The notes: a model not told the origin generated them from the letters alone. A DNA stretch of 64,000 nt from an uncultured Gammaproteobacteria bacterium (GCA_964435515.1 CAYSZD010000002.1:25042-89041), one strand, 5' to 3'. Shown: positions 3,120 to 17,757, numbered from the stretch's first letter. Program-made: numbers and translations.

Positions 3120-4808
3120 ATGTTTATATATAAGAAAATATATATGAGTACTAATTTAGAAAATATTGCTAATAAAATATTTGCCCCTACTTTAGCAGAA
3201 ATAGAAGCGATAGATAAACGCTATCCTAAACGTCAACTAGAACCAGGGGCAATAGTAAGCAGAATTGCTCCTAGTCCAACTGGCTTTGTTCATTTAGGCA
3301 CGCTCTATACCGCCCTAATATCGGAACATTTTGCTCATCAAACTAATGGAGTATTTATTCTCCGCATTGAAGATACTGACAAAAAAAGAGAGGTAGCGGG
3401 CACAGCTCAACTTTTCGCATCCACTCTAGATAATTATGAGCTTCATATTGATGAAGGATTAATGCCAGATAGTACAGAAAAGGGTGGTTATGGACCATAT
3501 CATCAAAGTGCCAGAGCAGACATATATCAAGCTTATGCTAAAAAACTTTTTCTTGAAGGAAAGGCCTATGCTTGCTTTGCTAGCTCTGAAGAATTAGAAA
3601 ACATGCGTGAAAAACAAGCTCAAATGGGCCACAGAAGCGGCTACTGGGGCGATTTTGCTATTTGGCGACATAAATCATTAGAAGAAGTAGAAGAGGCCTT
3701 AGATAAAGGCTTAAAGCCAGTGATAAGGTTTAAATCAGCTGGTAATTTTAATAATAAAATAGCAATTAAGGATATATTGTTGGGTTCTAGAGAATTACCA
3801 GAAAATGATCAAGATATTGTTATAATTAAAACAGATGGACTACCAACCTATCATTTTGCCCATGCTATTGATGATCACTTAATGGGCACTACCCATGTTA
3901 TTCGTGGCAATGAGTGGTTTCCTTCCCTGCCTTTACACCTACAACTATTTGAAGCTTTAGCTTGGCCAGCTCCACAATATGCTCATCTTTCACCGATTCA
4001 AAAAATGGATGAAGGTAAAAAAAGAAAGTTAAGTAAAAGACATGACCCGGAATCTAATTTAGAATATTTTGCTGAAGCCGGTTATCCTCAAGAAGCTTTA
4101 ATTGAATATCTATTAAACTTAGCCAATTCTAATTTTGAAGATTGGCGTAAAGCTAATCCAAATTTAAGTTATAAGGAATTTGAATTAAGTTGGAAGAAAT
4201 TAGCTAAATCTAATGGACCTTTATTTGATACCAAAAAATTAGAAGATATCAGTAAAGAAATTATTTCTAAATTCACAGCTGATACTATCTACCAAAGAGC
4301 TCTAAGCTGGTCCAAGCAATATAGCTTGTCTCTTAAAAAAATACTTGAAGATAATAAAGACTATGCGATAAAAATTATAAATATTGAAAGAGAAGGAGCA
4401 ATAAAGCCTAGAAAAGATTTAAGTAAGTGGTCTGAATTAGAATCAGAAATTAGCTATTTCTATGATGAACTTTTTAGTATAGATAAACAATCATTAGAAG
4501 AAGTGATAAAACAATTAAATGGTACTGATATTAAAAGTATTATTAATGATTTTATAGCAAATTACAACGAGCAAGATAATCAGGAAATCTGGTTTGAAAA
4601 ATTAAAAACAATTGGACAAAAATATGGCTTTGCCCCTAGCATGAAAGACTATAAAAATGATGAGAATAAATATAAAGGACAGCTAGGCACAATTGCTCAA
4701 TTATTACGCCTATTACTAACTGGGCGCAAACAAAGCCCTAATCTAGCTGAAGTCATGAGAGTATTGGGGGATAAGAGGATGAGGGAAAGGTTAAGTAATT
4801 GTCTATAA
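3120..4808 (+). CDS. gltX: Glutamate--tRNA ligase (class I aaRS)
   Basis: HIGH-type motif APSPTGFVHLGTLYTAL and KMSKS-type motif KLSKR; length fits GltX. An alternative start is the ATG at 3144 (MSTNLENI). Confidence 0.9.
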   Translation: MFIYKKIYMSTNLENIANKIFAPTLAEIEAIDKRYPKRQLEPGAIVSRIAPSPTGFVHLGTLYTALISEHFAHQTNGVFILRIEDTDKKREVAGTAQLFASTLDNYELHIDEGLMPDSTEKGGYGPYHQSARADIYQAYAKKLFLEGKAYACFASSEELENMREKQAQMGHRSGYWGDFAIWRHKSLEEVEEALDKGLKPVIRFKSAGNFNNKIAIKDILLGSRELPENDQDIVIIKTDGLPTYHFAHAIDDHLMGTTHVIRGNEWFPSLPLHLQLFEALAWPAPQYAHLSPIQKMDEGKKRKLSKRHDPESNLEYFAEAGYPQEALIEYLLNLANSNFEDWRKANPNLSYKEFELSWKKLAKSNGPLFDTKKLEDISKEIISKFTADTIYQRALSWSKQYSLSLKKILEDNKDYAIKIINIEREGAIKPRKDLSKWSELESEISYFYDELFSIDKQSLEEVIKQLNGTDIKSIINDFIANYNEQDNQEIWFEKLKTIGQKYGFAPSMKDYKNDENKYKGQLGTIAQLLRLLLTGRKQSPNLAEVMRVLGDKRMRERLSNCL

Positions 4809-4834
4809 AATTATACCTATATATAAGATATGCC

Positions 4835-4868
4835 AAAAGACCACCGCTTATTCCGCTGGTGGTCTTTT
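4835..4868 (+). terminator. Rho-independent terminator after gltX
   Basis: AGACCACC (4838-4845) pairs with GGTGGTCT (4857-4864), followed by a TTTT run. Confidence 0.6.
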
Positions 4869-4910
4869 ATAAAATAGCTTTTTTAGTTATATAAGATATT
4901 TAAATAACTT

Positions 4911-5042
4911 CTACACTCTATCAAACACGGCCAGAAGTTCGGGCTTAACATACTCTTTCAAAAACTTCCGGCGATATTTCGTTCCCCAGACTATATGATA
5001 CTGATGTTGATAGCTTGAATGATTTAAGGCTCGGATTCTCAT
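4911..5042 (-). pseudogene. tnpA: IS200/IS605-family TnpA (Y1 transposase) N-terminal stub, 43 codons then stop
   Basis: Minus-strand translation gives MRIRALNHSSYQHQYHIVWGTKYRRKFLKEYVKPELLAVFDRV*. The H-x-YHIVW-x-x-KYRR-x-x-L block is the conserved N-terminus of Y1 transposases. A full TnpA is about 130-150 aa, so the gene is truncated. Confidence 0.7.
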
Positions 5043-5050
5043 GATTAAAG

Positions 5051-5078
5051 CTTAACACGTCGCAAATGACGTGTTAAG
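5051..5078 (-). repeat. Perfect inverted repeat (11-bp stem, 6-nt loop) in the tnpA 5' leader
   Basis: CTTAACACGTC gcaaat GACGTGTTAAG. IS200-type elements carry subterminal and leader hairpins, which are recognised by TnpA or used for translational control. Confidence 0.6.
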
Positions 5079-5175
5079 AGTGGAGTTATTCATCCCCGCA
5101 CTCCGGCCAAAGTCCCAAGTTTATCACTGTTAGTCATCGTACTACTTTGACCTCCATACGGGGTTTCCTGACCTT

Positions 5176-5205
5176 ATAAAAATCCCTCATTAAGATGAGG
5201 GATTT
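5176..5205 (-). terminator. Rho-independent terminator overlapping the MFS stop codon
   Basis: AAATCCCTCAT (5180-5190) pairs with ATGAGGGATTT (5195-5205). On the minus strand a T-run follows the hairpin. Confidence 0.5.
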
Positions 5206-6404
5206 GATGCTTTATTGTTTCCTTTATAAAAGAAAACAATGCTAAACAAGATAACTAAGGCACTAAAAGCCCAAGTAAACAAGATGCCATAATTATTAGC
5301 TAAAAGACCGCTAATCACCAAACCTAGAGCCGATGCTCCTGTTATAATCATGGACTCGAAAGAAACAATCGTCGCTCGATAACGACTGTCAATGTTCGCG
5401 TGGACATAATCACGGTAAAGCGGTTTTAACACGCCTCGTCCCACTTCATGTAGGAGAAAAAAAATAAGGAAGGACGACAGTTGCACAAACAACAAGCAGC
5501 TAATTAATCCAACAAAGGTAATAATCTGAGAAAAGAAAATAGCATTTTTCTTGCATTTAATCTTACTGCTCCAAAACTTAGCAAGCTGAGCGCCGCCATA
5601 TACTGACAAAGCTATACCCGCAAACACTAAACCCATAAACCGAGTAGGCAGAGCAAAATTATTTTTTAATACCAACGGCCAATACATATTAATTGGCATT
5701 ATGGCAAAAGAAAAAATAGCAAAAAAACAAATCATGTGCATTAGTCGACTGTTTTTCCATCCGTAAATAACGCTCTCTACTGCTATATTCTTTAAAGCAT
5801 GAAGACCAGATTTTAGATTAAAACCCTTCCCTGTTGTCTCAGTGCTTTTTTCTTCAGGTGGTAAGAGTAAAGGCGCAGTAAGCGCTAATAAGCTAAAAGT
5901 AATAGCGCTTAAAAGCCAGGGCCAAGCTAAATTAAAGCCAGCCGCATAGGATCCAATCAAAACGCCGATAATCGTTCCCATTGTTCTTACTTCTGCTTTC
6001 GCAAACAGTTCTTGACTATACCCTGGCCTATCTTCAGATTTAACACTATCAAAAACCAGTGCCTCTGCTGCTCCAGAAATACAAGTGGCTGCTAAAGCGC
6101 CAATAATTTCTGCTGCTAAAAATTGCCAAAAACTTTCAGCAAAAAAATACAGGAGAAAAGAAAAGACAAATAACCATAAACCAATAATCGCTGAACGTCT
6201 TCTTCCGAAAAAATCAGCAATAGCACCGGTGGGAATTTCAAAGCAGAAATTAGCTAGCATGTAGCACGCGTTAAGAAGATTAATTTCTAATAAAATTAAG
6301 CCTTTTTCAACTAAAAATAGTTGATAAGTGGCAAAGAAGAAGCTTATCGCTAAGCCTTCCAAGGCGACAAATGTCGCGTACTTTCTGATAATCTTTTTTT
6401 TCAT
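5190..6404 (-). CDS. MFS-type transporter (about 12 TM helices)
   Basis: Highly hydrophobic ORF with an MFS-like GAIADFFGRRRS loop motif between TM2 and TM3. I prefer the start at MKKKIIRKY (6404). The longer track ORF (to 6467) would read through a strong hairpin at 6431-6459. Confidence 0.8.
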   Translation of the reverse strand: MKKKIIRKYATFVALEGLAISFFFATYQLFLVEKGLILLEINLLNACYMLANFCFEIPTGAIADFFGRRRSAIIGLWLFVFSFLLYFFAESFWQFLAAEIIGALAATCISGAAEALVFDSVKSEDRPGYSQELFAKAEVRTMGTIIGVLIGSYAAGFNLAWPWLLSAITFSLLALTAPLLLPPEEKSTETTGKGFNLKSGLHALKNIAVESVIYGWKNSRLMHMICFFAIFSFAIMPINMYWPLVLKNNFALPTRFMGLVFAGIALSVYGGAQLAKFWSSKIKCKKNAIFFSQIITFVGLISCLLFVQLSSFLIFFLLHEVGRGVLKPLYRDYVHANIDSRYRATIVSFESMIITGASALGLVISGLLANNYGILFTWAFSALVILFSIVFFYKGNNKASNPSS

Positions 6405-6430
6405 GGCTCTTATTTTTTTGTTAAAGTTCA

Positions 6431-6459
6431 AAAAACCATTTCCTGCGGAAATGGTTTTT
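6431..6459 (-). terminator. Hairpin terminator (works on either strand) upstream of the MFS gene
   Basis: AAAAACCATTTCC tgc GGAAATGGTTTTT, a 13-bp stem flanked by A and T runs. Confidence 0.5.
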
Positions 6460-6683
6460 ATAAACATAGAGCTCTTATGAAATAGGATTATACAGATAAT
6501 TTGGTATTCTTATGATATTTATAAAAATCATTGCCGCAATAGTCGTTCCAATACATAGGATCGACAATAAACGCAAAAGTGTTTGCGCTTGATAAACGGT
6601 TTTGATTTTTACAAATATTTCTTCTCATATTATTAATCTACATTATAGTATACGTAAAAGATTGATTTTTGTTACAGTAAATA

Positions 6684-7121
6684 CTATTTGCTCATTAATT
6701 TAATCTCCTGGTCTACCAAGACATCTAAATCAAAATTTTCTCTTTCTATCCGACAATCTAGACTTTCTACTGCTGGATAATAATCACAATTTAGATAACG
6801 AGCAACAAAATTAATTAAATAAACCTTGTCCTTTACAACTGTGGCATAGGCATACTGGCTATAGATAAAGCCAGTCGCGCCTTCACTAGAAACAGCTATG
6901 TAATATCGCCTACCACTCATTTCCCTCTTACCTACACGAAAAGATAAACTTGATTCAGGAGCAGTCTCATTACACTCTATCTCACCATCTTCAAACCAAG
7001 ACTCTAGTTTGGGACACTCTTCTGCTTTAAAGATATATGCACCATAATTAGTAATTATTAGTAATACGTAATGCCAATAAGTGTTAAAAGAGGTGTCTTT
7101 GATACTAATACATGCATTTGA
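6684..7121 (-). pseudogene. Start-less orphan C-terminal cassette related to the giant exoprotein gene at its 5' edge
   Basis: The frame is open for 146 codons from 7121, with a TAA at 7122-7124 just upstream. There is no ATG, GTG or TTG before the ATG at 6920. The first ~19 codons (ISIKDTSFNTYWHYVLLII) parallel giant-protein residues ASTNDSSFNTYWHYVLPII. The track lists only the 78-aa distal part (6684-6920). Confidence 0.5.
7061..7092 (-). repeat. 32-nt direct repeat, copy 2 (identical to 8131-8162)
   Basis: gtaatacgtaatgccaataagtgttaaaagag read directly at both sites, offset 1070 nt. Weaker similarity continues over 7093-7107 versus 8163-8177. Confidence 0.9.
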
Positions 7122-7220
7122 TTAGACACAAAACACTTACATTTAAACCTAAATTACCAAATAAAAAAGCCTGAAGTGTGTAAAACAACAACAGGCTTAT
7201 TAAATTGTCCCCATAAGCAG

Positions 7221-7670
7221 TCAGGGGTCGATTTCTTGTTGTGGTGTCGTAAGATCAGGACTAACCACAATCACCAGCTTATTAATCCCTGGTAAAACAA
7301 CTAAGGGGTCAATTGCTTTTTGCATAGTCAGACCTGAAAAAACAGGATAATAGCCGCGAGTTATGCCTATATAAATATAGGCTTTTTTGCCAGCTAATTC
7401 AAGTGCCATGTCACCAGTCAGACGAACAGTGCTAATAGGTTCCTTGAACTCTATTGCCTGAAGAGCAGTAGTTCTATCGGCACTTACTACCACAAATTGA
7501 TTGCAACCCAAAGCCATATTATCGGGTTTTTGAAATTCCACTTGAATCTCAATCACCGGATTAGCGTGTGGGTCCGGATCTGGATCCGGAGGCGCAACAG
7601 GATCTTTTTCGCAGGAGCTCAAAAGAGCTACAACCACGAAAGTGAAAAATAAATACAGAAACTTTTTCAT
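7221..7670 (-). CDS. Lipoprotein of unknown function
   Basis: Signal peptide with lipobox (VVALLSS-C), then a PDPDPDP linker. GGGAG Shine-Dalgarno ~7 nt before the ATG. Visibly higher G+C than neighbouring genes. Confidence 0.75.
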   Translation of the reverse strand: MKKFLYLFFTFVVVALLSSCEKDPVAPPDPDPDPHANPVIEIQVEFQKPDNMALGCNQFVVVSADRTTALQAIEFKEPISTVRLTGDMALELAGKKAYIYIGITRGYYPVFSGLTMQKAIDPLVVLPGINKLVIVVSPDLTTPQQEIDP

Positions 7671-7723
7671 GCGTATCTCCCTTCTTTTTTAAATGAACAA
7701 TGAAAATTGACAAATCTATTTAA

Positions 7724-7752
7724 ATACTAGTACTTTTTATGCTAAATGTCAA
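7724..7752 (-). promoter_or_regulatory. Candidate sigma70-type promoter for the lipoprotein gene
   Basis: On the minus strand: TTGACA (7752-7747), 17-nt spacer, TAGTAT (7729-7724). Chance matches are common in AT-rich DNA. Confidence 0.3.
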
Positions 7753-7834
7753 CAAGGGCAAAAAACGACAATAAACTATATCTATTTCATCATAACAACC
7801 TCAAGTTCTCTTTTAGAATTATTTTTCACCGTCC

Positions 7835-10800
7835 TTATGGCCAAACTCGATACAAACTCCAATTATCAGTCACTCTAATACTAAAATTCTTAATACCTAC
7901 CGTAGCATAATAGTGATAGACAACGTGAGGGTCGGTAATGTTAGGACGACTATCTTGATTAACTAGGTTTTGAATATTGCCATCACCCCAGTTAACAATT
8001 AAGTCTCTTAGAGGTTGTTGTTCTTTATCAATTGTAGTGTTAAAGCTTAGTTTATATATACCTGGACTTTGTACATTAATACTATTACCACTTACTGGAA
8101 CACTATTTATTTTAACCTGACTTATTATTGGTAATACGTAATGCCAATAAGTGTTAAAAGAGCTGTCGTTGGTGCTAGCGTGGCAAGTTAAATTAAGACA
8201 AGCACCGTTTTGTGTTATGGAATCAATGTAGTTAACGGGGATATTGTTGTTTATGTCAATGTATCCATAAGCGCTCTCATAAGTTCCTTTACCTTTACTA
8301 AAGGTATAACCATCATAAGAAGTAAGGAAGGTATTCTTTAGAATATTGTCTGAAAGAAAAGGTGTTAATGAATTTTGATCAGCAACCTTCCCCCCATTCC
8401 ACATCGGCACGCAAGTACCATTGGCAGCGCCACAAGAACGTTGATTGACTAAAGACTTATTAGCGCTATCTGTATAATCTAAAATACAGTAGACGTTAGG
8501 GTCTAAACTACAATAGCCTAAATTACTACAACCAGGACCACTACAACCATAGGGTCTACCAGCAAAAGCTTCTTGATCTATTTTGCTTGAATATTGATTC
8601 CTAAACTTCACTGCTTCACTGGCAAAAATATTAAAGTTATCTGGAAAAGTAGCGGCGCCAAAAGGTACTAGCTCACGATTACGACCATATTTGGTAAAGT
8701 CATAGTTATTGACAGAAATTGTATGTATAGCTCCAGGAGTAGAACAATCAACTGGAGTTTGCACAGCTTCCCAGGCCAGACAATCACCTATAAAACCACA
8801 AGGAGGCTGACAATGAGCGGGTTCAGTAAAACAATTACAACCATTGTCGCAAGCACATTCATCGGTGCAATTATATTCTGTGATATGACAAGTATCAGGT
8901 ATAGAACCATAGAAAGTATTAACATCTCTAAAGAAGGCGGGGGTATCAAATAAATAGGCACTGTTTTTACTTACCCTATCTGCCCAGGCCTTATTATTAC
9001 CATCATTATCTACTACTTGAACAAACTTATTACAAGTTGGATAATATACTTTTTCTGAGTCAGGAGAAGAAATGAGCTTAAGATCGTCCTCATCAATTGT
9101 TTGATTATTATTATAAACAGTTCTATCAAAAATTCTAACCGAAGGATTGGCATTTTTAGCTTCATTTAAAGTACTATCTGTTCTAGACGAAAAACCATCA
9201 TAAATATACCAGCCATTATAATCACTGACATCAAAACTAAAGTCAAAAGACTGAGTACCAGAGTCTTTATGACTAGTGGTAATTGAAAGAGGATCTATTG
9301 TTGTAGCTAACCTATCATTATTTAATGGAATACAGAAAGTATCTTTTCTATCCCAGCCTCGAAACTGAAGAATAAAATAATCAAAATTAGAACTTCTATC
9401 TGGTTGGCATTTATTATGTAATTCAGGTTCATTATTAGTGTCATCATTTGTTCCGTTATTGACTGTACAAAAATTTGAAGTAGACCCATCTTCGTAAAAA
9501 CAAGACAATGAATCGTTCCCTGCTGAATTTTCTTTTTCACTATCTACCAACTTAGCCACCCGCTTCTCTACTAAAGTAAAGTTACCATTAGCTTCAGTAC
9601 AATAGTTAAGGGGAAAGGCGCCTTGATAACCGAGAGTGGAGCGAGCTGATTTAAAGTTAGCGCTAATTTCATCAACTGGATACCAAAGTAAGCAAACATT
9701 CTTATTAGCTGAATCATGTTGCAGACAATAACCAACTAAACCATCCTTCACTACTTTACTATTCACACTACTACAAGATAATGCATCTTGAGATGGATAT
9801 AGTCTACATTCCTTCGCCACATACTCATTGTTTCCTACCTCTAATACTGGTTCAATATTAATATCATCGAAATAGACATAACGCTCTTCTGTTCTACTAC
9901 CATTCTCTACTGACAACATAAGTACCACCTTATCATTATCAGCTGCAACATTAAAAGACATCACCTTTCTTTCCCAGCCTTGATTAGCGCTAAAGATTTG
10001 AGTTTTAAGTGGCGTCTGATTATAGTAATCTGATTGAGCACTATATTCATAGACAGACACTCTTGCCTGAACACCTGTATCCTTAGTATTTAATAGAAAG
10101 TTGATATAATGTGTCGTTCTGTTAGTTAGGCTGTTATTAGGTAGAACAATAGGAGAATTAACTGAATGAGGGGAAATCATCTGTCCAGACATTACTCTTA
10201 AATAGGCTCCGCCTTCAGCCGGATAATCAGCTGGAGCATTGCTTGGTGAATTTATAATACTTTCTGCCTGAATACTACTAGTAAATACACAAGGAGAACT
10301 AGTGCCTATCTTCTGACAATATAGAGTAGGACTAGCAGCTTCAAAATTAAAATGAGCAGTAGTATTTGAGCCCACCTCTTTCATGCGAGCAAGACTATAT
10401 TTATCTAAAACTGAATAACCAGATAATTTAGTTAAATCAGAGCTAGCCGCATTAACAATACTGTTATCAGGAGCAACAAAATTCATACATTCGCCTTGAT
10501 CGTTTAAAGCATTACATTCTCCTAAGGCATAGCAAGTTCTTTCACCAGTATCAGCATCAACCACATAAGTCATACAATCTAACCAAGAAGCACAGGTCCT
10601 ATCAGGTCTCACTTTAATTAAAGTATTGGAGTCACAATTACCAGTTGTACATACTTGAGGAGCTTGACCATCCTGACTAGCAGCCGCATTCCAGCCACCA
10701 CTAAGAGATAGTAGTCCCTGTCCTCCATTCATTGAACGTTCATTAAAGAGAATGCAACCATCAGCTTCATTTACTAGTCCATTACAAGTTGTTTTATCAA

Positions 10801-13800
10801 CATTACTCTCTAATTGATAGTCGATAATAGCTTTCTTTAACACTATTTCATGATTAGCATTGGGACCAAAAACTCGGACCCATTTATTATTTCTGGAATG
10901 AAAAATATAGCGTTGAGAAGGATTATCTCTTGGAATAACAAATGAATTAATTAACTCACTACTCAAACTATTATCTTCTTGTAATTGTGACAATCCAATA
11001 GGCGACTCCACTCTCACATCATACACCAGGGCTGGATTAGCAGTATTAACGGATATGATATATAAAGAATTTGGCTCTACATCTACTCTCTGACTAGCAT
11101 TGGCGCCAGTCCCATCCCAAGCGTTATTATTCTGATCAGCACTAGGATCTTTAACTAAATTAACCGAGAAAGAACTTACCGGATCGATATATTCAGTACA
11201 ACTAGATTGACTCGCCTCACATATAGCCGCTGATTCTGATGGAATAGGTATTTGTTGACCTCCGCCTCCATAGCCAAAGGTTTTAAAGTATGAAACCGGA
11301 CATTCATAATCATTATTATCAATTACACAGGGACGATTAGCCGCACAATCAGTAGCACTAGCACAAATCTTTGTTCCCTTCTCAATACCATCAATATTAC
11401 CATTATTATTTAAATCGCAGCGCATAACAGGCGACTTATACCAAGCCTTACCAACTTTTTCTGGATCAGTACTATTTCTATAAACACAAGTATTGTTAGC
11501 TGGGTTCTTGAAATAGGCAGTACCTGTTCCATCAAGATATTGCCAAGCCTCGCAACCAGAATCTAAAGCGCTACAAATAATAGAATCATATTTATTTGGA
11601 TTATTACGCTTAAAGACATCTGACCAGGCTAAATTTTCAGCTGAAGAAATAGCTTCACCAAAACGAGAACAACCTAAATCGGCTACATTACATTGCTTAG
11701 TTTTATCATAGATAGCATAGGTAAATTTATCTCCTGCTACTTTAATACACTCTGGCTCATTGGAATCACACAAGCCATTATCATTAGTATCTTTCCAAAT
11801 ATTTCCCTTAAAATTATCAAAGTTAGCAGTACTAATCATCATTTCACAACCAACAGCTGAATCTTGACATAATTTATTAAATTGACGTAAATAATGAACA
11901 GTGTTTGCTCTATCGGTATAAGCAGAACAACCAAGATTATAGTCAGGTCCCTGATAATTATCCAACATATCGTAGTAGCAGATATCAGGAATTTGACTGG
12001 TATTTTTAATTAAATAATAGCGATTACTAATTTCCGTTAAGACTAAATTATCAAGATAAAAATCAGCACTAGCAACTATAACTAAAGACTCATTAGCATC
12101 CACTTGATGATCTAGAACTGGTAAATTAATTTCATAAGTCTGCCACTCATTATTACCATTTATTACAAAACTACCATTTGAATTACTTTCACTAGCATTG
12201 AAATAGACCATCTCATCTTTAGAGTTTAAGAAGCCTACATAAACATTAGTATTATTAGCAGCGCTAGCAGTAAATTTAAGACTATAGGCCTTACTTTCAG
12301 AAACACTATTACCTAATATTTTTCTGATGAAAGAACTTGGAGCAGCGTTAGCGCTACCCATAATACGATCTAACCAACCAGTCTGATTGGATTGATCACA
12401 ATTTGTTTGTTGTTGAACACCACCAGCATTAGCCCCTCTATCATACATTAATGATTGACCATTGTTTGAATTAGCAACTGGTGAATGAACAGCTGCATCG
12501 CCACACTGTCCCTCCCAGCCCTCTAAACCAAAGGCAAAGCTGTTAGAACTAATGAGTCTAGTATTATTGCCTAAATTACCATTATATTCTCGACAACCAT
12601 TCTCCTGAGCTGAACACTTTGTGCCTTCTTGTGGAATTGCTTGATACAGACAAGCTTGTTGTTCATTATTCCAAAGGCCACCATTTTTACAAACATAACA
12701 ACTAGAAATAGTGCTATTCCAAGATCTGTCCGTACCCACACATTCAGCTTGAGAGACAGTTGTATCAATATTATTTTCCGTTAATCTATAACTATGACAA
12801 TTTTCTGAACAAGTAATTGTACTACTATTTAAGCGATATGATATTTGACCAGCCTTATTATAATACTGACGACAATCAGGGTTAAAGAAAGGATCGCTTG
12901 GAGGAAGATTAAATATACTTTCATTGCAATAGGCACTACCATCACTAGTTGCGGCTGGATTGCCACTTTCATCTTTCTTTAATACAAAAGATTTAAGTTG
13001 ATAGCCGCTTTCTTCTGTGCCTACCCAAGTATAGAAATCAGCACAATCAGCCCCAGGCTTAATACATTGTTTTAACTGAACATAATATTCCCTATTTTCT
13101 CCGCCCATAGCCGCATCGTCTAGATTGGTAAATTCACTACAACCAACTGCTTGAGCGCTACAAGTCTGACTATTTTGAGGAATAATTTTTTCTGCTTGAG
13201 GGGAATAGAAATAGTTAGCCCGACTAACATATAAGTCGTAGCCATTACAACTAGAATCACAGTAATCAGTGGTAACTGCTTGAGCTGCCACTGAGAAACC
13301 ACTACTTAATTCAGAAAAACGTTCGCAACCAGCTTCGTCCATGTTACATTGACGAGCAAAATTACTACATACTGCCGGAGCATCAATCTTTAAACGATAA
13401 TCAGGAGAACTGGAATTAGCATCTTGATAACAAGTATCTTTTAGATAATTAGGAATTAATTTTTCGTAAATCTTTTGAGAGCCATATGCAGAAAAACCAG
13501 AATCAAAAGAACTCATTTCTAATTTAACATTTCTCACCGCAAATTCAGTAGGACCATTATCGCTATAGGCAGTTATTCCAAAAGATAACTCTGATAATGG
13601 TTTTTCTCGTAAGTCTCTGGTGACACTCAAGTGTCGCCACACCTGCTGGTCAGTTGTTTGCACTGCAGCAGTATAGTCATCCCCTAAGATTACGTGCACC
13701 CTATCACCTGTAATTAAATAAACATCCGCACTAAGGGTATAGGTTTCATCGGAGATAACATTAAAATCAGCTGGCAACAAAGACACTGCGTTATTTGAAT

Positions 13801-16165
13801 AAAGACTAATAACTTCACTAGTAGAACTAGCTCTAATAGCTTTGCCAAGAGAAATACCATCTAAAGAAGAAGTATCTATAATTTCCGCTGAACGTGTGCC
13901 ATTGGACCAAAAACTCCAATAATTATTAATCCTTGATTCAACCGCCACATCACCAATGTTATCATTAGAAAAATCAGCCCCCATGACTAAATTAGAACCC
14001 CAAGCAGACTTAACTCTCATCATCTCCTGACAAGACTCAGAATCAGATGAACAACTTTCTAATTTATCGTTAAAATAAGCATTAGCAAAAGGATTAGCCG
14101 ACCAAGTCACTTGACCACTATCAACATCATAACTGCCATTAGTAGAATAACGCTGACAACCTACTGAGTCGGCAGTACAATCACCATAATCTAAAGTATT
14201 CTCTAAATAAGATACCTTTGCACCACTGCTAGCTGAAACAAAAGAACTACAAGTATTGTTAATAGGATCGCAAGAAGGAGAATTAAAATTCCAAGTTCTT
14301 CTCTCAGATAAACAATGACCATAAGTTTCACAACTGCCATCAGGATTTTCATCAATACAACTTTGATCATCGCCACAATAATTATCAGCTCTTACCACTG
14401 TCACTGTATCGCTAATAGCAGCATTATCACTCACACTAGGAATTACGCTTACATTTAAAATTTGAGAGCTATATCCTTGAGCAGAACAATAGTTAAGAGG
14501 AGCCTTAAGCACCCAATTAGGGTCAACTAAACCTCGACACCAAGATTGATTTAAAATATTAAAATTAGAGCTATAGGAAGTATATTTATCACTAGCGCTA
14601 AAACAAGACATTAAGTCTAATAAAGTAGCATTTTGATTATACTGAGCAGCTATTTCCCAACTAGTAGGGACAATTCTGTATTTACGTAAAATTTGAATAT
14701 TACGTAAATTATAAGTGCCATCTCTATATTCACTAGTAAATTGCCAATCCGAACGTAAATAGCCCTCCTTAACTGCCTCTGCTACCGTTTTCTTCTCAGT
14801 AACTCCTTGCATAAATCTTTCATCAATTACGCAATCAGTTGGACCAGGATTATTACGATCCCTACAAGTACTAAGTGCCACTAAAATATTGTAATCACCT
14901 CTAGTACCGAAATTTGGTTCAATAATCTCAGCCATGCTTTCACGCACTTTCCCTTCTCCATAACGAATATTAGGGTCACTATAAATATTATTGTCATCAC
15001 CACTAGTAGCAATCTTACCTAAATTACTCATCTTCTTATTAAAAAAGCTAACAGCTAATTGATTTAAAAATACATTAGCCGCATCGATTAAAGCATCTCC
15101 GGTAAATTCACCAATATTATTAATATAACCCTGTTCTGACATCTCTATTTTTCTCTCAGCGTCACCAGGAGTGCCAACAATATTACCAGCAATATTGCGC
15201 ACATCCAACCAGCCTTTATTGGATTCTAAAGTTGTCTTCGCCTTATCTTCTTCACTATTAATTATGCTTTGACTATTAGCCCGAAGGGTATAATAGATAC
15301 CTAAATCATTAGAGGCTGGATTAAAAAGATCTCTCATGTTAGTAAAGAAATGAGGATCAGTGTATATTTCTGTTTGACGATAATATTCATCATCCCAGCG
15401 CTCTACCATCTGTGAAGCTGAACAATTTGGCGCCTTTGGTCTTTGATAGTCAACCAAAGCTAAGGATATTTTTAATCTAGCATCCAAAGAAGAAGGACGA
15501 CAAACCAAAGTTGCTAACGAAGAAGCTGGTAATCTACTTGAGGTAACTCCATCACTGCCAGTATCAACTCCACTGCATTGAAATAATTGTGCCTCACATT
15601 GAGCCATGGTTTTTTTTGGAAAAGAGACTCTACAAGTGTCTGTGCAAGAAGCTGGATTATTAATACCGCAGCTTCTAACGCATTTTGAATAATCCCTATC
15701 GCCTATACAATCATCATAAGCTAACTTACACTGCTCATTTTTTTCTGTACCTTTTGCGTCACTTGTCCAACTGGCATTCTGCCAATTAGCTACAGCCGTT
15801 TCTAAAAACTGCCCAGCCGCTTCATCACCAATTTGACTCAAATAATCACCCCAACCTTGAGTCACAAAAAGTGGTTTTTGTCCTTCTCGCCCAGAACCAA
15901 TCCAATTGGCAGTATCATAGGCAATTTTATTTAAAGCGGTGCGAGTCGCTTGTTGCAGAGCAGCTGCTCCTCCCTTTTCGTAGGCCTTTTTGATAAAATC
16001 CCAAAGAGGATTTAACACCGTATTAGAAATACCCTGATTAATATCCGCAGTTTGGGCTTTAGTTGCTTTAGGAGAAATAACAAAAAAAGAAAATACCAGA
16101 ATCAACAAAAGCAAAAAAGATCGCCATCTAAAACGATTATTATAAAACTTGGAACTATTAGACAT
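7835..16165 (-). CDS. Giant secreted Cys-rich surface protein (2776 aa) with CBM/jelly-roll-like modules and a C-terminal PKD/Ig-like domain
   Basis: Uninterrupted 8.3-kb ORF with N-terminal signal/anchor RSFLLLLILVFSFFVISPKATKA. At least 9 copies of C-x5-[GS]-C-x-x-[FYWM] (CTADSVGCQRY, CSSDSESCQEM, CNMDEAGCERF, CSAQAVGCSEF, CSAQENGCREY, CQDSAVGCEMM, CNVADLGCSRF, CSALDSGCEAW, CEASQSSCTEY). Three beta-sandwich-like blocks end in FAVRNVKLE (~13510-13960), DFYLDNLVLTE (~12030-12330) and VYFDDINIEP (~9850-10230). The C-terminus VNWGDGN...HVVYHYYATVGIKNFSIRVTDNW resembles a PKD domain. Confidence 0.9.
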   Translation of the reverse strand: MSNSSKFYNNRFRWRSFLLLLILVFSFFVISPKATKAQTADINQGISNTVLNPLWDFIKKAYEKGGAAALQQATRTALNKIAYDTANWIGSGREGQKPLFVTQGWGDYLSQIGDEAAGQFLETAVANWQNASWTSDAKGTEKNEQCKLAYDDCIGDRDYSKCVRSCGINNPASCTDTCRVSFPKKTMAQCEAQLFQCSGVDTGSDGVTSSRLPASSLATLVCRPSSLDARLKISLALVDYQRPKAPNCSASQMVERWDDEYYRQTEIYTDPHFFTNMRDLFNPASNDLGIYYTLRANSQSIINSEEDKAKTTLESNKGWLDVRNIAGNIVGTPGDAERKIEMSEQGYINNIGEFTGDALIDAANVFLNQLAVSFFNKKMSNLGKIATSGDDNNIYSDPNIRYGEGKVRESMAEIIEPNFGTRGDYNILVALSTCRDRNNPGPTDCVIDERFMQGVTEKKTVAEAVKEGYLRSDWQFTSEYRDGTYNLRNIQILRKYRIVPTSWEIAAQYNQNATLLDLMSCFSASDKYTSYSSNFNILNQSWCRGLVDPNWVLKAPLNYCSAQGYSSQILNVSVIPSVSDNAAISDTVTVVRADNYCGDDQSCIDENPDGSCETYGHCLSERRTWNFNSPSCDPINNTCSSFVSASSGAKVSYLENTLDYGDCTADSVGCQRYSTNGSYDVDSGQVTWSANPFANAYFNDKLESCSSDSESCQEMMRVKSAWGSNLVMGADFSNDNIGDVAVESRINNYWSFWSNGTRSAEIIDTSSLDGISLGKAIRASSTSEVISLYSNNAVSLLPADFNVISDETYTLSADVYLITGDRVHVILGDDYTAAVQTTDQQVWRHLSVTRDLREKPLSELSFGITAYSDNGPTEFAVRNVKLEMSSFDSGFSAYGSQKIYEKLIPNYLKDTCYQDANSSSPDYRLKIDAPAVCSNFARQCNMDEAGCERFSELSSGFSVAAQAVTTDYCDSSCNGYDLYVSRANYFYSPQAEKIIPQNSQTCSAQAVGCSEFTNLDDAAMGGENREYYVQLKQCIKPGADCADFYTWVGTEESGYQLKSFVLKKDESGNPAATSDGSAYCNESIFNLPPSDPFFNPDCRQYYNKAGQISYRLNSSTITCSENCHSYRLTENNIDTTVSQAECVGTDRSWNSTISSCYVCKNGGLWNNEQQACLYQAIPQEGTKCSAQENGCREYNGNLGNNTRLISSNSFAFGLEGWEGQCGDAAVHSPVANSNNGQSLMYDRGANAGGVQQQTNCDQSNQTGWLDRIMGSANAAPSSFIRKILGNSVSESKAYSLKFTASAANNTNVYVGFLNSKDEMVYFNASESNSNGSFVINGNNEWQTYEINLPVLDHQVDANESLVIVASADFYLDNLVLTEISNRYYLIKNTSQIPDICYYDMLDNYQGPDYNLGCSAYTDRANTVHYLRQFNKLCQDSAVGCEMMISTANFDNFKGNIWKDTNDNGLCDSNEPECIKVAGDKFTYAIYDKTKQCNVADLGCSRFGEAISSAENLAWSDVFKRNNPNKYDSIICSALDSGCEAWQYLDGTGTAYFKNPANNTCVYRNSTDPEKVGKAWYKSPVMRCDLNNNGNIDGIEKGTKICASATDCAANRPCVIDNNDYECPVSYFKTFGYGGGGQQIPIPSESAAICEASQSSCTEYIDPVSSFSVNLVKDPSADQNNNAWDGTGANASQRVDVEPNSLYIISVNTANPALVYDVRVESPIGLSQLQEDNSLSSELINSFVIPRDNPSQRYIFHSRNNKWVRVFGPNANHEIVLKKAIIDYQLESNVDKTTCNGLVNEADGCILFNERSMNGGQGLLSLSGGWNAAASQDGQAPQVCTTGNCDSNTLIKVRPDRTCASWLDCMTYVVDADTGERTCYALGECNALNDQGECMNFVAPDNSIVNAASSDLTKLSGYSVLDKYSLARMKEVGSNTTAHFNFEAASPTLYCQKIGTSSPCVFTSSIQAESIINSPSNAPADYPAEGGAYLRVMSGQMISPHSVNSPIVLPNNSLTNRTTHYINFLLNTKDTGVQARVSVYEYSAQSDYYNQTPLKTQIFSANQGWERKVMSFNVAADNDKVVLMLSVENGSRTEERYVYFDDINIEPVLEVGNNEYVAKECRLYPSQDALSCSSVNSKVVKDGLVGYCLQHDSANKNVCLLWYPVDEISANFKSARSTLGYQGAFPLNYCTEANGNFTLVEKRVAKLVDSEKENSAGNDSLSCFYEDGSTSNFCTVNNGTNDDTNNEPELHNKCQPDRSSNFDYFILQFRGWDRKDTFCIPLNNDRLATTIDPLSITTSHKDSGTQSFDFSFDVSDYNGWYIYDGFSSRTDSTLNEAKNANPSVRIFDRTVYNNNQTIDEDDLKLISSPDSEKVYYPTCNKFVQVVDNDGNNKAWADRVSKNSAYLFDTPAFFRDVNTFYGSIPDTCHITEYNCTDECACDNGCNCFTEPAHCQPPCGFIGDCLAWEAVQTPVDCSTPGAIHTISVNNYDFTKYGRNRELVPFGAATFPDNFNIFASEAVKFRNQYSSKIDQEAFAGRPYGCSGPGCSNLGYCSLDPNVYCILDYTDSANKSLVNQRSCGAANGTCVPMWNGGKVADQNSLTPFLSDNILKNTFLTSYDGYTFSKGKGTYESAYGYIDINNNIPVNYIDSITQNGACLNLTCHASTNDSSFNTYWHYVLPIISQVKINSVPVSGNSINVQSPGIYKLSFNTTIDKEQQPLRDLIVNWGDGNIQNLVNQDSRPNITDPHVVYHYYATVGIKNFSIRVTDNWSLYRVWP
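8131..8162 (-). repeat. 32-nt direct repeat, copy 1 (inside the giant gene, 98 codons before its stop)
   Basis: Identical to 7061-7092. It encodes SFNTYWHYVL in the giant ORF frame. Confidence 0.9.
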
Positions 16166-16199
16166 AGTTTTTTCTAAATTATAAAAATAAAAGCAAGAA

Positions 16200-16838
16200 C
16201 TATTCTGCTTGAAGTTCTTGCTGACCCAACATATCTTGATAACTTGACATTAATTCTTCGTCGCTTAATTCCTGCAACATTTTTTCATCAACCCCACTGG
16301 CTAATAATAATACTCTGAGCTCCTCTGCACTAGCCTGGCCTAAGAGCATAGAGTTCATTATGCCATCTATTTCTCCCGAGTTAGACAAAGAAAGATTATT
16401 TGAAGCTTCTGGAATAATGGCAATATTTTCCTGTTGATTTACCACTTTAATTTCATTATTACACTCTGCACCGCTAGCACATAAGGGATCAGTGCCTTGA
16501 TTAACTTCATCACGATCACTAATATTATCGCCATCTGTATCAGTTAAATAAGCTGAAGTATTATATAAAGATTGCTCTTCATAATCAGACAAACCATCAC
16601 CATCAGTATCGGCATTTAAAGCTAACTGATTAAAATTTTCCGTTTCTTCATTCAAACTCACATTTTTAGCTCCATTTGAAACACTAAATGGGTCAGTAAG
16701 GCGCAGGTTTATTTGCCAAACCCAAAGAATTAATACACCTAAACTAAGCACTGAAAGAAATATAAAAGAATTCTTTTGTTTTTTAGGAAGATTGCTAAAA
16801 AAAGAATTTTTAGATTCTGTGATAGATTTTTTTGACAT
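16200..16838 (-). CDS. Membrane-anchored protein with thrombospondin-type-3/dockerin-like Ca-binding repeats
   Basis: N-terminal TM helix (FIFLSVLSLGVLILWVW). Two D-x-D-x-D-G-x-x-D-x-x-E loops (DTDGDGLSDYEE, DTDGDNISDRDE). The stop lies 34 nt upstream of the giant gene start. Confidence 0.8.
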   Translation of the reverse strand: MSKKSITESKNSFFSNLPKKQKNSFIFLSVLSLGVLILWVWQINLRLTDPFSVSNGAKNVSLNEETENFNQLALNADTDGDGLSDYEEQSLYNTSAYLTDTDGDNISDRDEVNQGTDPLCASGAECNNEIKVVNQQENIAIIPEASNNLSLSNSGEIDGIMNSMLLGQASAEELRVLLLASGVDEKMLQELSDEELMSSYQDMLGQQELQAE

Positions 16839-16888
16839 AAGTAATCAAGCTGATTTTAAAAAAAATTCATCTCTTATGATTACTCAAA

Positions 16889-17743
16889 TTATAACACAGA
16901 ATGACTTATAGCCGCAACTAAGTTTTGCCAATTTAATAAACTTAATTGTTCCGCTCTCACCTTACTATCTAACTGAGCTGTTTTAAAAGCATCATCAATA
17001 ATATTAGGGGCACATTTTAGTCCAGCCACTAAATTATTTTTCAACATTTTTCTTTTAGCACTGAATCCAATACGAGCCAAACGAAAAAATCTTTTTGCCT
17101 CTTCTATTGATTGACTATTAGGTCTCTCTTTTTGATAAACAAAACGCAAAATAGCACTATCTACTTTCGGCGCTGGCCAAAAATCTGAAGCAGGCACAAT
17201 ACGTATAATTTCTGCCTGGCCATAATAGGCCAAGGAAAGAGACAGAAGCGACATGTCTGGTTCTTGCCTTACAATTCTTTCTGCCACTTCCTTTTGTAGC
17301 ATTAAAACTAAAGATGAAGGAGGATTAATTGAAGACAGAAAAGTACGTAAGAAAACAGAACTAATATTATATGGTAAATTAGCAACAACGCTATATTTTT
17401 CGGCTTCTAAAAAATAATCACTTGGATTAAAACGTAAAATATCTTGATTAACAATTTCAACATTATCTACTCCTTGAGAATTAATAGCCAATTCTAATAT
17501 TTCCGCTAAATGATCATCTAATTCAACCGCCACTACTCTTTTTACTACTTCCGCTAACTTAGCAGTTAAAAAACCTAAACCAGGGCCAACTTCTAAAACT
17601 GAATCATCAGAACTCAGATTAGCCGCCTTAATAATCGCTTGATAAATTCCTTCATTAATTAAAAAATTTTGCCCCTTACTTCGAGTAGGGGAAATGTCAT
17701 ATAAACGGCACAATTCTTTAGTCTGCTTAGTAATATCTGTCAT
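16889..17743 (-). CDS. rsmA: 16S rRNA (adenine1518/1519-N6)-dimethyltransferase
   Basis: KGQNFLINEG, the SAM-binding motif VLEVGPGLGFLT, and VANLPYNISS are KsgA/RsmA hallmarks. Confidence 0.9.
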   Translation of the reverse strand: MTDITKQTKELCRLYDISPTRSKGQNFLINEGIYQAIIKAANLSSDDSVLEVGPGLGFLTAKLAEVVKRVVAVELDDHLAEILELAINSQGVDNVEIVNQDILRFNPSDYFLEAEKYSVVANLPYNISSVFLRTFLSSINPPSSLVLMLQKEVAERIVRQEPDMSLLSLSLAYYGQAEIIRIVPASDFWPAPKVDSAILRFVYQKERPNSQSIEEAKRFFRLARIGFSAKRKMLKNNLVAGLKCAPNIIDDAFKTAQLDSKVRAEQLSLLNWQNLVAAISHSVL

Positions 17744-17757
17744 AATATAATATAAAT

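Follow-up and report, generated by a model that had tools for sequence, protein, structure and literature searches.

The window analysed here is the whole 64,000-nt stretch CAYSZD010000002.1:25042-89041 of assembly GCA_964435515.1, and the element in question is a short direct repeat within it; all positions are counted from the first letter of the window. One copy of the repeat (copy 1) lies near the 3' end of a gene for a giant secreted or surface protein, and the other (copy 2) lies behind the lipoprotein gene which follows the giant gene, where it is joined to an open fragment called Xc. The repeat is probably the scar of a rearrangement, in which the stump of a duplicated unit, consisting of the tail of the giant gene and the lipoprotein gene, was joined to a fragment of an unrelated gene. 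A first-pass annotation of the window had read the same layout in another way, with Xc as an alternative tail of the giant protein comparable to the spare tails of polymorphic toxin loci. That interpretation is partly supported: a relic of a module junction is present, and the alternative tail, the recent acquisition and the toxin analogy are wrong. The features are listed in Table 1.

The repeat search gives a single family of direct repeats, 7054-7107 and 8124-8177, of 54 nt with 91% identity and a spacing of 1070. Its perfect core is 32 nt long (7061-7092 = 8131-8162). A 31-nt pattern of the core, with up to three mismatches allowed, matches exactly two sites in the window (7061-7091 and 8131-8161) and has no match in any of 100 dinucleotide-preserving shuffles. 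Local alignment against shuffles shows no significant similarity on either flank outside the 54 nt; the partial similarity reported earlier on the gene-sense 5' side of the core holds inside the repeat and ends with it. Copy 1 is in the frame of the 2776-aa open reading frame (ORF) at 7835-16165(-), where the peptide SFNTYWHYVL forms residues 2669-2678. Copy 2 is in a frame which is open from 7121 to 6684, with a TAA before it and an ATG at 6920 as the earliest start codon. A crossover within the core would, by the arithmetic of the frames, join 2678 residues in frame to a 125-residue tail. The repeat search, the ORFs and their translations confirm the coordinates, frames and arithmetic of the first-pass annotation (2678-aa body, 98-aa tail, 125-aa alternative), and also its description of copy 2 as start-less with junction homology.

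The last 477 aa of the giant protein were used as a query for its homologues, which are 17 proteins and 127 loci (49 in genomes and 78 in metagenomes). In these, the linker encoded by the repeat begins 13-15 residues ahead of an invariant Pro at the start of a PKD-like domain. The peptide SFNTYWHYVL itself is poorly conserved in the family and the invariant residue is the Pro just behind it, which does not agree with the idea of the motif as a conserved module boundary. Similar linker peptides are NFNSYWKYVLP in P0006/L004 and NFQTYWHWIKP in P0004; because homologues have similar peptides at that place, copy 1 is native to the giant gene. Copy 2 of the window differs from copy 1 at five positions, four of them G:C to A:T, and these substitutions fit an unconstrained copy which decays in an A+T-rich genome. 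In strain L054, 47 of 48 nt are identical between the copies, and copy 2 of the window has two further changes. The spacing corresponds to one complete unit, 8177-7108, which begins with the linker ahead of the tail and closes a little beyond the terminator of the lipoprotein gene; its right end is ~55 nt after the T-run.

Concerning the sequence behind copy 2, a search with the 145-aa frame gives three proteins (P0001-P0003) with 59-63% identity across the final ~120 residues. Of these, P0002 and P0003 are encoded by complete genes of 236-245 aa with their own ATG, an N-terminal transmembrane helix and a Cys-rich N-terminal domain, and P0001 has a different N-terminal part. A profile of the shared domain, called here the X domain, finds 986 members at E <= 0.001 among 1.84 billion cluster representatives. 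Most members are 150-350 aa long and carry the domain at the C-terminus; none of the best 150 of the 986 is longer than 1137 aa. The homologues, including P0002, P0003 and P0021-P0028, are independently initiated, membrane-anchored, stand-alone proteins of 200-340 aa. In a few larger multi-domain exported proteins the domain is combined with others: in P0052 (1137 aa) a C25 peptidase domain is present beside weak Ig-like matches, P0038 has an inhibitor domain of the chagasin type, and P0055 has DUF3298 and, below threshold, a match to PdaC. The X domain is found in 0 of the 17 giant-family proteins and in 0 of the 127 loci. The reading of the 125-aa frame as a displaced tail of the giant protein is contradicted by these independently initiated, anchored homologues, an observation which the first-pass annotation had itself named as one that would speak against it.

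The conserved X domain begins approximately at NLPxSFKANYISFxNY. In tblastn searches with 19 members of the family, the homology in the window starts at 7049-7052 in most cases, directly behind the repeat, and no N-terminal half of X is found elsewhere in the window. The window copy is missing ~110 N-terminal codons; the anchor is lost with them, and so is the YISF strand (E119-122 in the model of P0002), whose place is taken by residues encoded by the repeat. Of the 20 columns that are conserved in at least 90% of the family, three are altered in the window copy, by the changes Cys to Tyr, Ala to Thr and Asn to Tyr, and at those columns 139 of 151 members show no more than two changes. The signal of relaxed constraint is modest, and the frame is still open. 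On this sequence evidence Xc is considered a pseudogene remnant, the 3' part of a gene unrelated to the giant protein, because it has no start codon and no signal anchor, the first strand of the domain is absent and a near-invariant Cys is lost. That Xc is in frame with the stump is a one-in-three accident.

The genome loci of the giant family belong to Falkowbacteria and other Patescibacteria, and the best match is L004 with 58%. The gene order ksgA (rRNA adenine dimethylase), TSP3-repeat protein gene, giant gene is kept: both ksgA and the TSP3-repeat protein are found in 34 of the 49 genome loci. All 17 homologous proteins end in the same PKD-like tail as the window protein, as do all 127 loci; neither a polymorphism behind the junction nor the alternative modules of tail and partner gene that had been proposed for related genomes are seen among them. 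The tail carries the motifs FNTxIDxEQQPL...WGDG...PHxxYHYY...DNW. In the AlphaFold2 (AF2) model of the 477-aa query, residues 376-477 form a confident beta-sandwich with a predicted local distance difference test score (pLDDT) of ~80-88, and the best PDB matches of the tail model are PKD domains, e.g. 4l9d (probability 1.0, TM 0.63). The identity of the window tail to that of L004 is 61%, and that of the rest of the C-terminal region is 58%.

Homologues of the lipoprotein are encoded directly downstream of the giant gene in L004, L007, L039, L056, L057, L061, L066 and L067 (tblastn). In ~29 of the 49 genome loci the giant gene is followed by an ORF of 138-166 aa that has a signal peptide and a Cys in its N-terminal part, and homology of these lipoprotein-like ORFs to the window gene is recognisable in the nearest relatives. 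As judged from this distribution, the PKD-like tail and the lipoprotein gene are ancestral in the giant family. Their family-wide conservation therefore gives no sign of a recently acquired foreign module, and would still be compatible with an allelic replacement. The lipoprotein gene had been regarded as acquired in the form of a module; it is instead a conserved neighbour of the giant gene. Its G+C content, cited as elevated, reaches up to 0.43 and stays inside the range of 0.30-0.43 found along the giant gene. The promoter-like signal reported upstream of it is present (TTGACA-17-TAGTAT at 7752-7724), but promoter-like matches in the region are no commoner than in shuffles. There is no Pfam match for the giant protein, the lipoprotein, Xc or the protein of a 46-codon ORF behind Xc, and nothing toxin- or immunity-like was found. 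The earlier statement that neither tail looks like a known toxin is upheld, and the active tail is PKD-like.

The related loci were scanned for repeats of the 3' end of the giant gene, and intact second units are found in two other lineages. L025 (8550-10627), from a related metagenome-assembled genome of Patescibacteria, contains a tandem second copy with a period of ~1025 nt. In this unit the last ~115 codons of the giant gene and the intergenic region are followed by a lipoprotein gene of 150 aa with its terminator; the second tail is start-less and open. The left end of the unit falls at alignment column 125-129 and that of the window repeat at column 122-125; from the lipoprotein terminator to the right end there are ~33 nt in L025 and ~55 nt in the window. 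Between the two tails of L025, 17 of 22 nucleotide differences are at third codon positions, with 16 synonymous and 5 non-synonymous codons. The two lipoprotein genes are identical, and the intergenic regions differ by ~20%.

In the second lineage, L135 (3-6308) has the order giant gene, lipoprotein gene 1, start-less orphan of 467 codons, lipoprotein gene 2 and gltX. The same orphan is found in L059 (5600-8447) and in the fragment L064 (1-2418), which come from other samples. The lineage is represented in the records Ga0116239, Ga0209201, Ga0116177 and Ga0116145. The units of L135, L059 and L064 are ~2.2 kb long, and their left end, ~467-485 codons before the stop, is unlike that of the window. 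In the orphans of this lineage, blocks identical to the expressed gene alternate with blocks that diverge strongly from it, and an alternative Cys-rich block is present. The L135 orphan also comes with a different lipoprotein allele, which is the allele in the expressed position of L060. L060 (5950-8413) is a strain with a single unit: its 5' part is 100% identical to unit 1 of L135, and its tail end and lipoprotein gene are 100% identical to unit 2. It is a recombinant of the two L135 units, or else L135 arose by the reverse event. Across the C-terminal 490 codons of L059, L060, L064 and L135, the differences between strains and between orphan and active copies cluster around GWG(E/K)Y, in the Cys-rich insert, in the linker before the PKD-like domain and in the last ~25 residues. 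Non-synonymous changes exceed synonymous ones (e.g. 38 to 10). This pattern fits either hypervariable surface patches or a neutral decay of the orphans. The proposed resemblance to Rhs/CdiA loci is therefore borne out to the extent that start-less orphans with a lipoprotein gene lie behind the active pair in relatives (L025; L135, L059 and the fragment L064) and recombine in one lineage; it does not extend to toxins, and the window would keep only the first 48-54 nt of such a unit, fused to a piece of an unrelated gene.

The window differs from its relatives also in the interval that follows the lipoprotein gene. In 15 near relatives, gltX begins 644-1406 nt past the end of the tail, right behind the lipoprotein gene, and in the window it begins 3030 nt past it; the adjacency of the two genes is broken by ~2.3 kb. 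The additional DNA is made up of the stump of the repeat, the fragment of X, the ORF of 46 codons, an MFS gene and a fragment of an IS200 transposase gene (tnpA). Of these, X, the small ORF and the MFS gene occur in none of the 127 related loci. Truncated genes flank this lineage-specific block on both sides.

The arrangement of the repeat is present in at least four independent read sets, according to Logan contigs and exact-protein look-ups. L053 (SRR11845623) equals window 8160-7061 at 100% and ends within both copies of the repeat, as expected for a k=31 graph. L054 (SRR34294817, 99.5%) and L055 (SRR8925722, 99.9%) run unbroken from the flank on the terminator side through copy 2 into the downstream frame, and L134 (SRR11845625) begins at copy 2. 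All visible strains of the window lineage have the same arrangement, and the population variation expected by the first-pass annotation was not found in them. The four read sets are alike and no fusion protein is on record, with the limit that k=31 contigs break at the repeat, so that a fusion would not be visible in them. An exact look-up of the giant protein also gave no record, and same-species variants were sought in the Joint Genome Institute (JGI) metagenomes with a degenerate FNTYWHYV(L) pattern, which had 0 matches. We give hardly any credence to an assembly artefact, a chimeric join at a shared k-mer. The perfect core of 32 nt is indeed close to common k-mer sizes, and the k=31 Logan contigs break exactly there, but two contigs from other samples cross copy 2 with both flanks, and the flanks next to the core differ between the copies, so that ordinary reads resolve them. 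An assembly chimera was rejected on the contigs of other samples that span copy 2.

In the explanation that we favour, copy 1 is ordinary coding sequence for a variable linker before the conserved PKD-like domain. Copy 2 would be the first 48-54 nt of a start-less second unit, made up of linker, PKD tail, stop, lipoprotein gene, terminator and short spacer, which would formerly have followed the first as a tandem copy at a distance of 1070 nt. Units of this kind may arise by tandem duplication at short microhomologies or by the arrival of an allelic unit, and one lineage shows recombination between them and the expressed copy. The window lineage would have lost the remainder of its second unit in a further illegitimate event. 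That event would have joined the stump to the 3' part of X, within the lineage-specific block of X fragment, 46-codon ORF, MFS gene and IS200 transposase fragment. The few bases shared at the junctions, TAG in the window and YTAAAT in L025, would match illegitimate joins.

Several points weigh against this explanation. Neither an intact second unit nor a full-length X gene was found in any strain of the window lineage, and the pattern of the repeat core (R-core) has 0 matches in metagenome contigs, so that copy 2 is tied to a former full unit by analogy with the relatives. Orphan units occur in only two other lineages among ~127 loci, and L025 is a co-assembly, with a duplication that is less certain than that of L135, L059 and L064, which was seen in three assemblies made separately. 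Between the MFS gene and gltX, a search for what might be left of a second lipoprotein gene gave nothing and exposed the IS200 tnpA fragment instead. Also, a one-step copying of a patch of 48-54 nt into a deletion junction would leave an identical sequence.

This one-step rearrangement is a lesser possibility that we take seriously. A template switch, at the insertion of X and the MFS gene or at the deletion of the 5' half of X, would have copied 48-54 nt from ~1 kb upstream as filler, without any earlier second unit. The sharp ends of the repeat, with nothing significant beyond them, the two flanks that are both junctions of unrelated sequences, and the truncated transposase in the interval, which shows a history of illegitimate events, all suit such a patch. 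It leaves unexplained that the repeat shares its start column with the L025 unit and that the spacing equals a complete unit of tail, lipoprotein gene and terminator. With uniform breakpoints over ~2700 codons, an agreement within ~4 codons is expected in ~0.3% of cases, a figure that is an estimate and not a test. An allelic displacement, in which the second unit is the resident one and was pushed downstream by a module of tail and lipoprotein gene from another strain, would make the active tail new but homologous. We regard it as improbable. The L025 tails, which differ mainly at third positions beside identical lipoprotein genes, are in line with it, and so is the L135 orphan, with its alternative Cys-rich block and the other lipoprotein allele, the one expressed by L060. 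The 54 nt that remain in the window cannot separate displacement from duplication followed by divergence, and the window tail is as close to L004 (61%) as the rest of the C-terminal region is (58%).

The model of the first-pass annotation, in which Xc is a former or alternative tail of the giant protein, displaced by a new module of PKD tail and lipoprotein gene and swappable through the 32-nt core in the manner of Rhs/CdiA or of adhesin-tip switching, is very unlikely. The stump does have junction homology, is start-less and is in frame, the X domain is usually C-terminal and also ends some multi-domain exported proteins such as P0052, and an exchange of modules occurs in a related lineage (L060). 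A perfect repeat of 32 nt could also support rare RecA-dependent homologous recombination. This has to be set against the absence of any X representative longer than 1137 aa among the best 150 of 986, and of the domain itself from the giant-family proteins and loci. A fusion would be without the first conserved strand of X and the fragment has lost its near-invariant Cys; no conserved partner gene lies behind Xc; the crossover would irreversibly delete the family-conserved tail and its partner gene; and the sampled strains all share one arrangement.

Orphan cdiA-CT and Rhs-CT modules are start-less and keep a demarcating motif (VENN, PxxxxDPxGL), after which the family diverges abruptly; past the motif they are homologous to C-terminal regions of other full-length members and are followed by a cognate immunity gene (Poole et al. 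2011, PMC3150448). In some strains, e.g. Y. pestis Microtus 91001, a deletion has fused the orphan to the main gene (PMC3150448). The window resembles these systems in having a start-less 3' fragment behind a very large exoprotein gene, with homology just upstream of the junction. The orphans of L025 and L135 come likewise with their own small partner gene, and the L060 recombinant, like the Microtus deletion, has part of the orphan in the expressed position. Unlike Rhs/CdiA, the giant family is without a conserved demarcating motif followed by abrupt divergence, and the modules of the relatives are homologous PKD-like and lipoprotein alleles instead of unrelated toxin/immunity pairs. No features of two-partner secretion, of type VI secretion (T6SS) or of YD repeats were seen. 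Also, the sequence behind the junction in the window belongs to an unrelated, independently initiated family with no homologues in the giant family. There is no travelling immunity gene, since the 46-codon ORF has no counterpart beside the X homologues L001-L003 or in the related loci.

Other known systems share some of these traits. Surface proteins are varied by homologous recombination with silent cassettes in pilE/pilS and in the MgPa repeats of Mycoplasma. The L135 lineage is similar in that its promoter-less partial copies are open over 467-485 codons, are block mosaics and recombine with the expressed gene. It differs in having a single orphan instead of an array, and in the inclusion of a complete partner gene. 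Orphans are also rare (two lineages in ~127 loci), there is no evidence of high-frequency switching, and the window contains only a stump. The pairs of template and variable repeats of diversity-generating retroelements are common in Patescibacteria; they too are short direct repeats, one copy of which lies close to the 3' end of a gene for a surface protein, but the window repeat is only 54 nt long and its second copy is fused to a gene fragment. A diversity-generating retroelement was rejected, as the non-coding copy, read in the coding sense, has an A at just one of the five mismatches, a pattern at odds with adenine mutagenesis, and no reverse transcriptase is found among the neighbours scanned, which cover part of the window. 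The window also resembles the scars of duplication and deletion in ordinary genome decay: a short direct repeat spaced by one gene-sized unit with both copy ends at junctions of unrelated sequence, neighbouring fragments without a start (X) or a 3' part (IS200 tnpA), and A+T-biased substitutions in the extra copy. Simple random decay, on the other hand, does not predict that the break lies within a few codons of the place where, in a distant relative, an intact duplicated unit begins. A literature search on giant Falkowbacteria proteins returned nothing relevant.

Table 1. Features of the window around the direct repeat and the neighbouring genes.
Feature	Position	Strand	Description
Giant secreted/surface protein gene	7835..16165	(-)	2776 aa; N-terminal signal/transmembrane segment; Cys-rich; no Pfam match
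Repeat copy 1	8124..8177, core 8131-8162	(-)	codes for variable linker (~residues 2663-2681) into the C-terminal beta-sandwich
PKD-like C-terminal beta-sandwich ('present tail')	7838..8143	(-)	ends the giant ORF in 49/49 genome and 78/78 metagenome loci
Lipoprotein gene	7221..7670	(-)	149 aa; lipobox LLSSC; PDPDPDP linker; MKKFLYLFFTFVVVALLSSC...
Hairpin with T-run, terminator-like	7163..7198	(-)	behind the lipoprotein gene; read from the sequence: AAGCCTG...CAGGCTTTTTT
Spacer after hairpin	7108-7162	(-)	right end of the 1070-nt unit
Repeat copy 2	7054..7107, core 7061-7092	(-)	non-coding; read as stump of a second unit of linker, tail and lipoprotein gene
Xc	6684..7053	(-)	5'-truncated fragment of a gene whose protein is exported and anchored by its N-terminus; what remains is the last ~123 codons of the conserved domain; no start before 6920
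46-codon ORF	6488..6628	(-)	no Pfam match; tblastn match in no related locus except the same strain
MFS transporter gene	5190..6467	(-)	Pfam MFS_1, E = 1e-29; lineage-specific at this position
Truncated IS200-like (Y1) transposase fragment	4911..5042	(-)	43-codon ORF; PF01797 Y1_Tnp, E = 2e-6 (28.3 bits, cutoff 23); covers only the first 34 of the 121 positions of the profile
Class I Glu/Gln-type aminoacyl-tRNA synthetase gene (here gltX)	3120..4808	(+)	Pfam tRNA-synt_1c; convergent with the giant operon

The conserved gene order in the region from ksgA to gltX (window 3120-20181) suggests a stable operon for surface proteins, probably co-expressed, in Falkowbacteria-like genomes. The hairpin with a T-run at 6431-6459, which had been annotated as a terminator, is present; the longest MFS ORF opens with an ATG at 6467, and the hairpin is contained in its initial 13 codons. 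A further ATG of the MFS gene comes just past the hairpin at 6404 (MKKKIIRKY...) and may be the true start. Nested inverted repeats are located around the 46-codon ORF and overlap it: 6444-6467/6515-6538 (24 nt, 88%) and 6515-6530/6603-6618 (16 nt, 94%). This suggests that 6444-6618 is a structured RNA or regulatory region rather than a protein-coding gene.

Concerning the X domain, its members (P0001-P0003, P0021-P0170) share the pattern ...EGAAGSxYTQYxY...NCxNYP...C..EREnFdLD... and constitute a large family, with 986 representatives at 50% identity, for which there is no Pfam model. Only weak matches to PsbP/DcrB/LpqN-like structures were found for its fold in PDB (E = 0.02-0.06, with a mean pLDDT of 64 for the model), and no fold is claimed. 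In L002 (194-1048), the sequence ahead of P0001 holds, in the frame of P0001, ATG...TAG and behind this an open stretch which codes for a transmembrane-like segment (LISLGILLIILVIIFFVISNL...); the gene call of P0001 begins at a downstream GTG. The TAG is either an in-frame stop, a sequencing error or the mark of a pseudogene.

The strains of the window lineage show a few differences. The window and L054 differ at 10 positions over 2025 nt, and five of these are within ~40 nt at or just upstream of the 5' edge of copy 2 (window 7093-7140 against L054 1-60). A sixth concerns a family-conserved Tyr (EEYPK), which is present in L054 and is Cys in the window. Also, L054 and L055, from different samples, start within 10 nt of each other (window 7142-7152), just past the lipoprotein terminator, and L053, from a third sample, crosses this point. 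The shared start could be a drop of coverage at the hairpin or a branch to another upstream sequence in those strains.

The result for the window is mainly corrective: what resembles the spare tail of a polymorphic toxin would be a pseudogene fragment joined to a duplication stump, and neither an alternative C-terminus nor a toxin/immunity locus should be annotated at Xc. Within the window this is an ordinary scar; the exchangeable units of C-terminal region and lipoprotein gene in the giant loci of Patescibacteria are modestly new. A more general idea, which we put forward tentatively and consider rather doubtful, is that in Falkowbacteria-like Patescibacteria the C-terminal part of the giant protein and the lipoprotein gene form an exchangeable module, with orphans as a reservoir that varies a pair of surface tip and anchor. 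The window repeat would then be a decayed instance, whose core could still fuse the giant protein to the X domain. The giant Cys-rich surface proteins belong to ultra-small bacteria, which are probably host-attached. Across the 127 loci and L135, L059 and L060, the PKD-like tail is universal and a small lipoprotein gene is its usual partner, and in at least one lineage the unit of C-terminal region and lipoprotein gene has been duplicated as a start-less orphan and exchanged between strains. This points out the part of the giant protein which varies in populations and is probably outward-facing, and it makes the lipoprotein a candidate physical partner of the giant protein.

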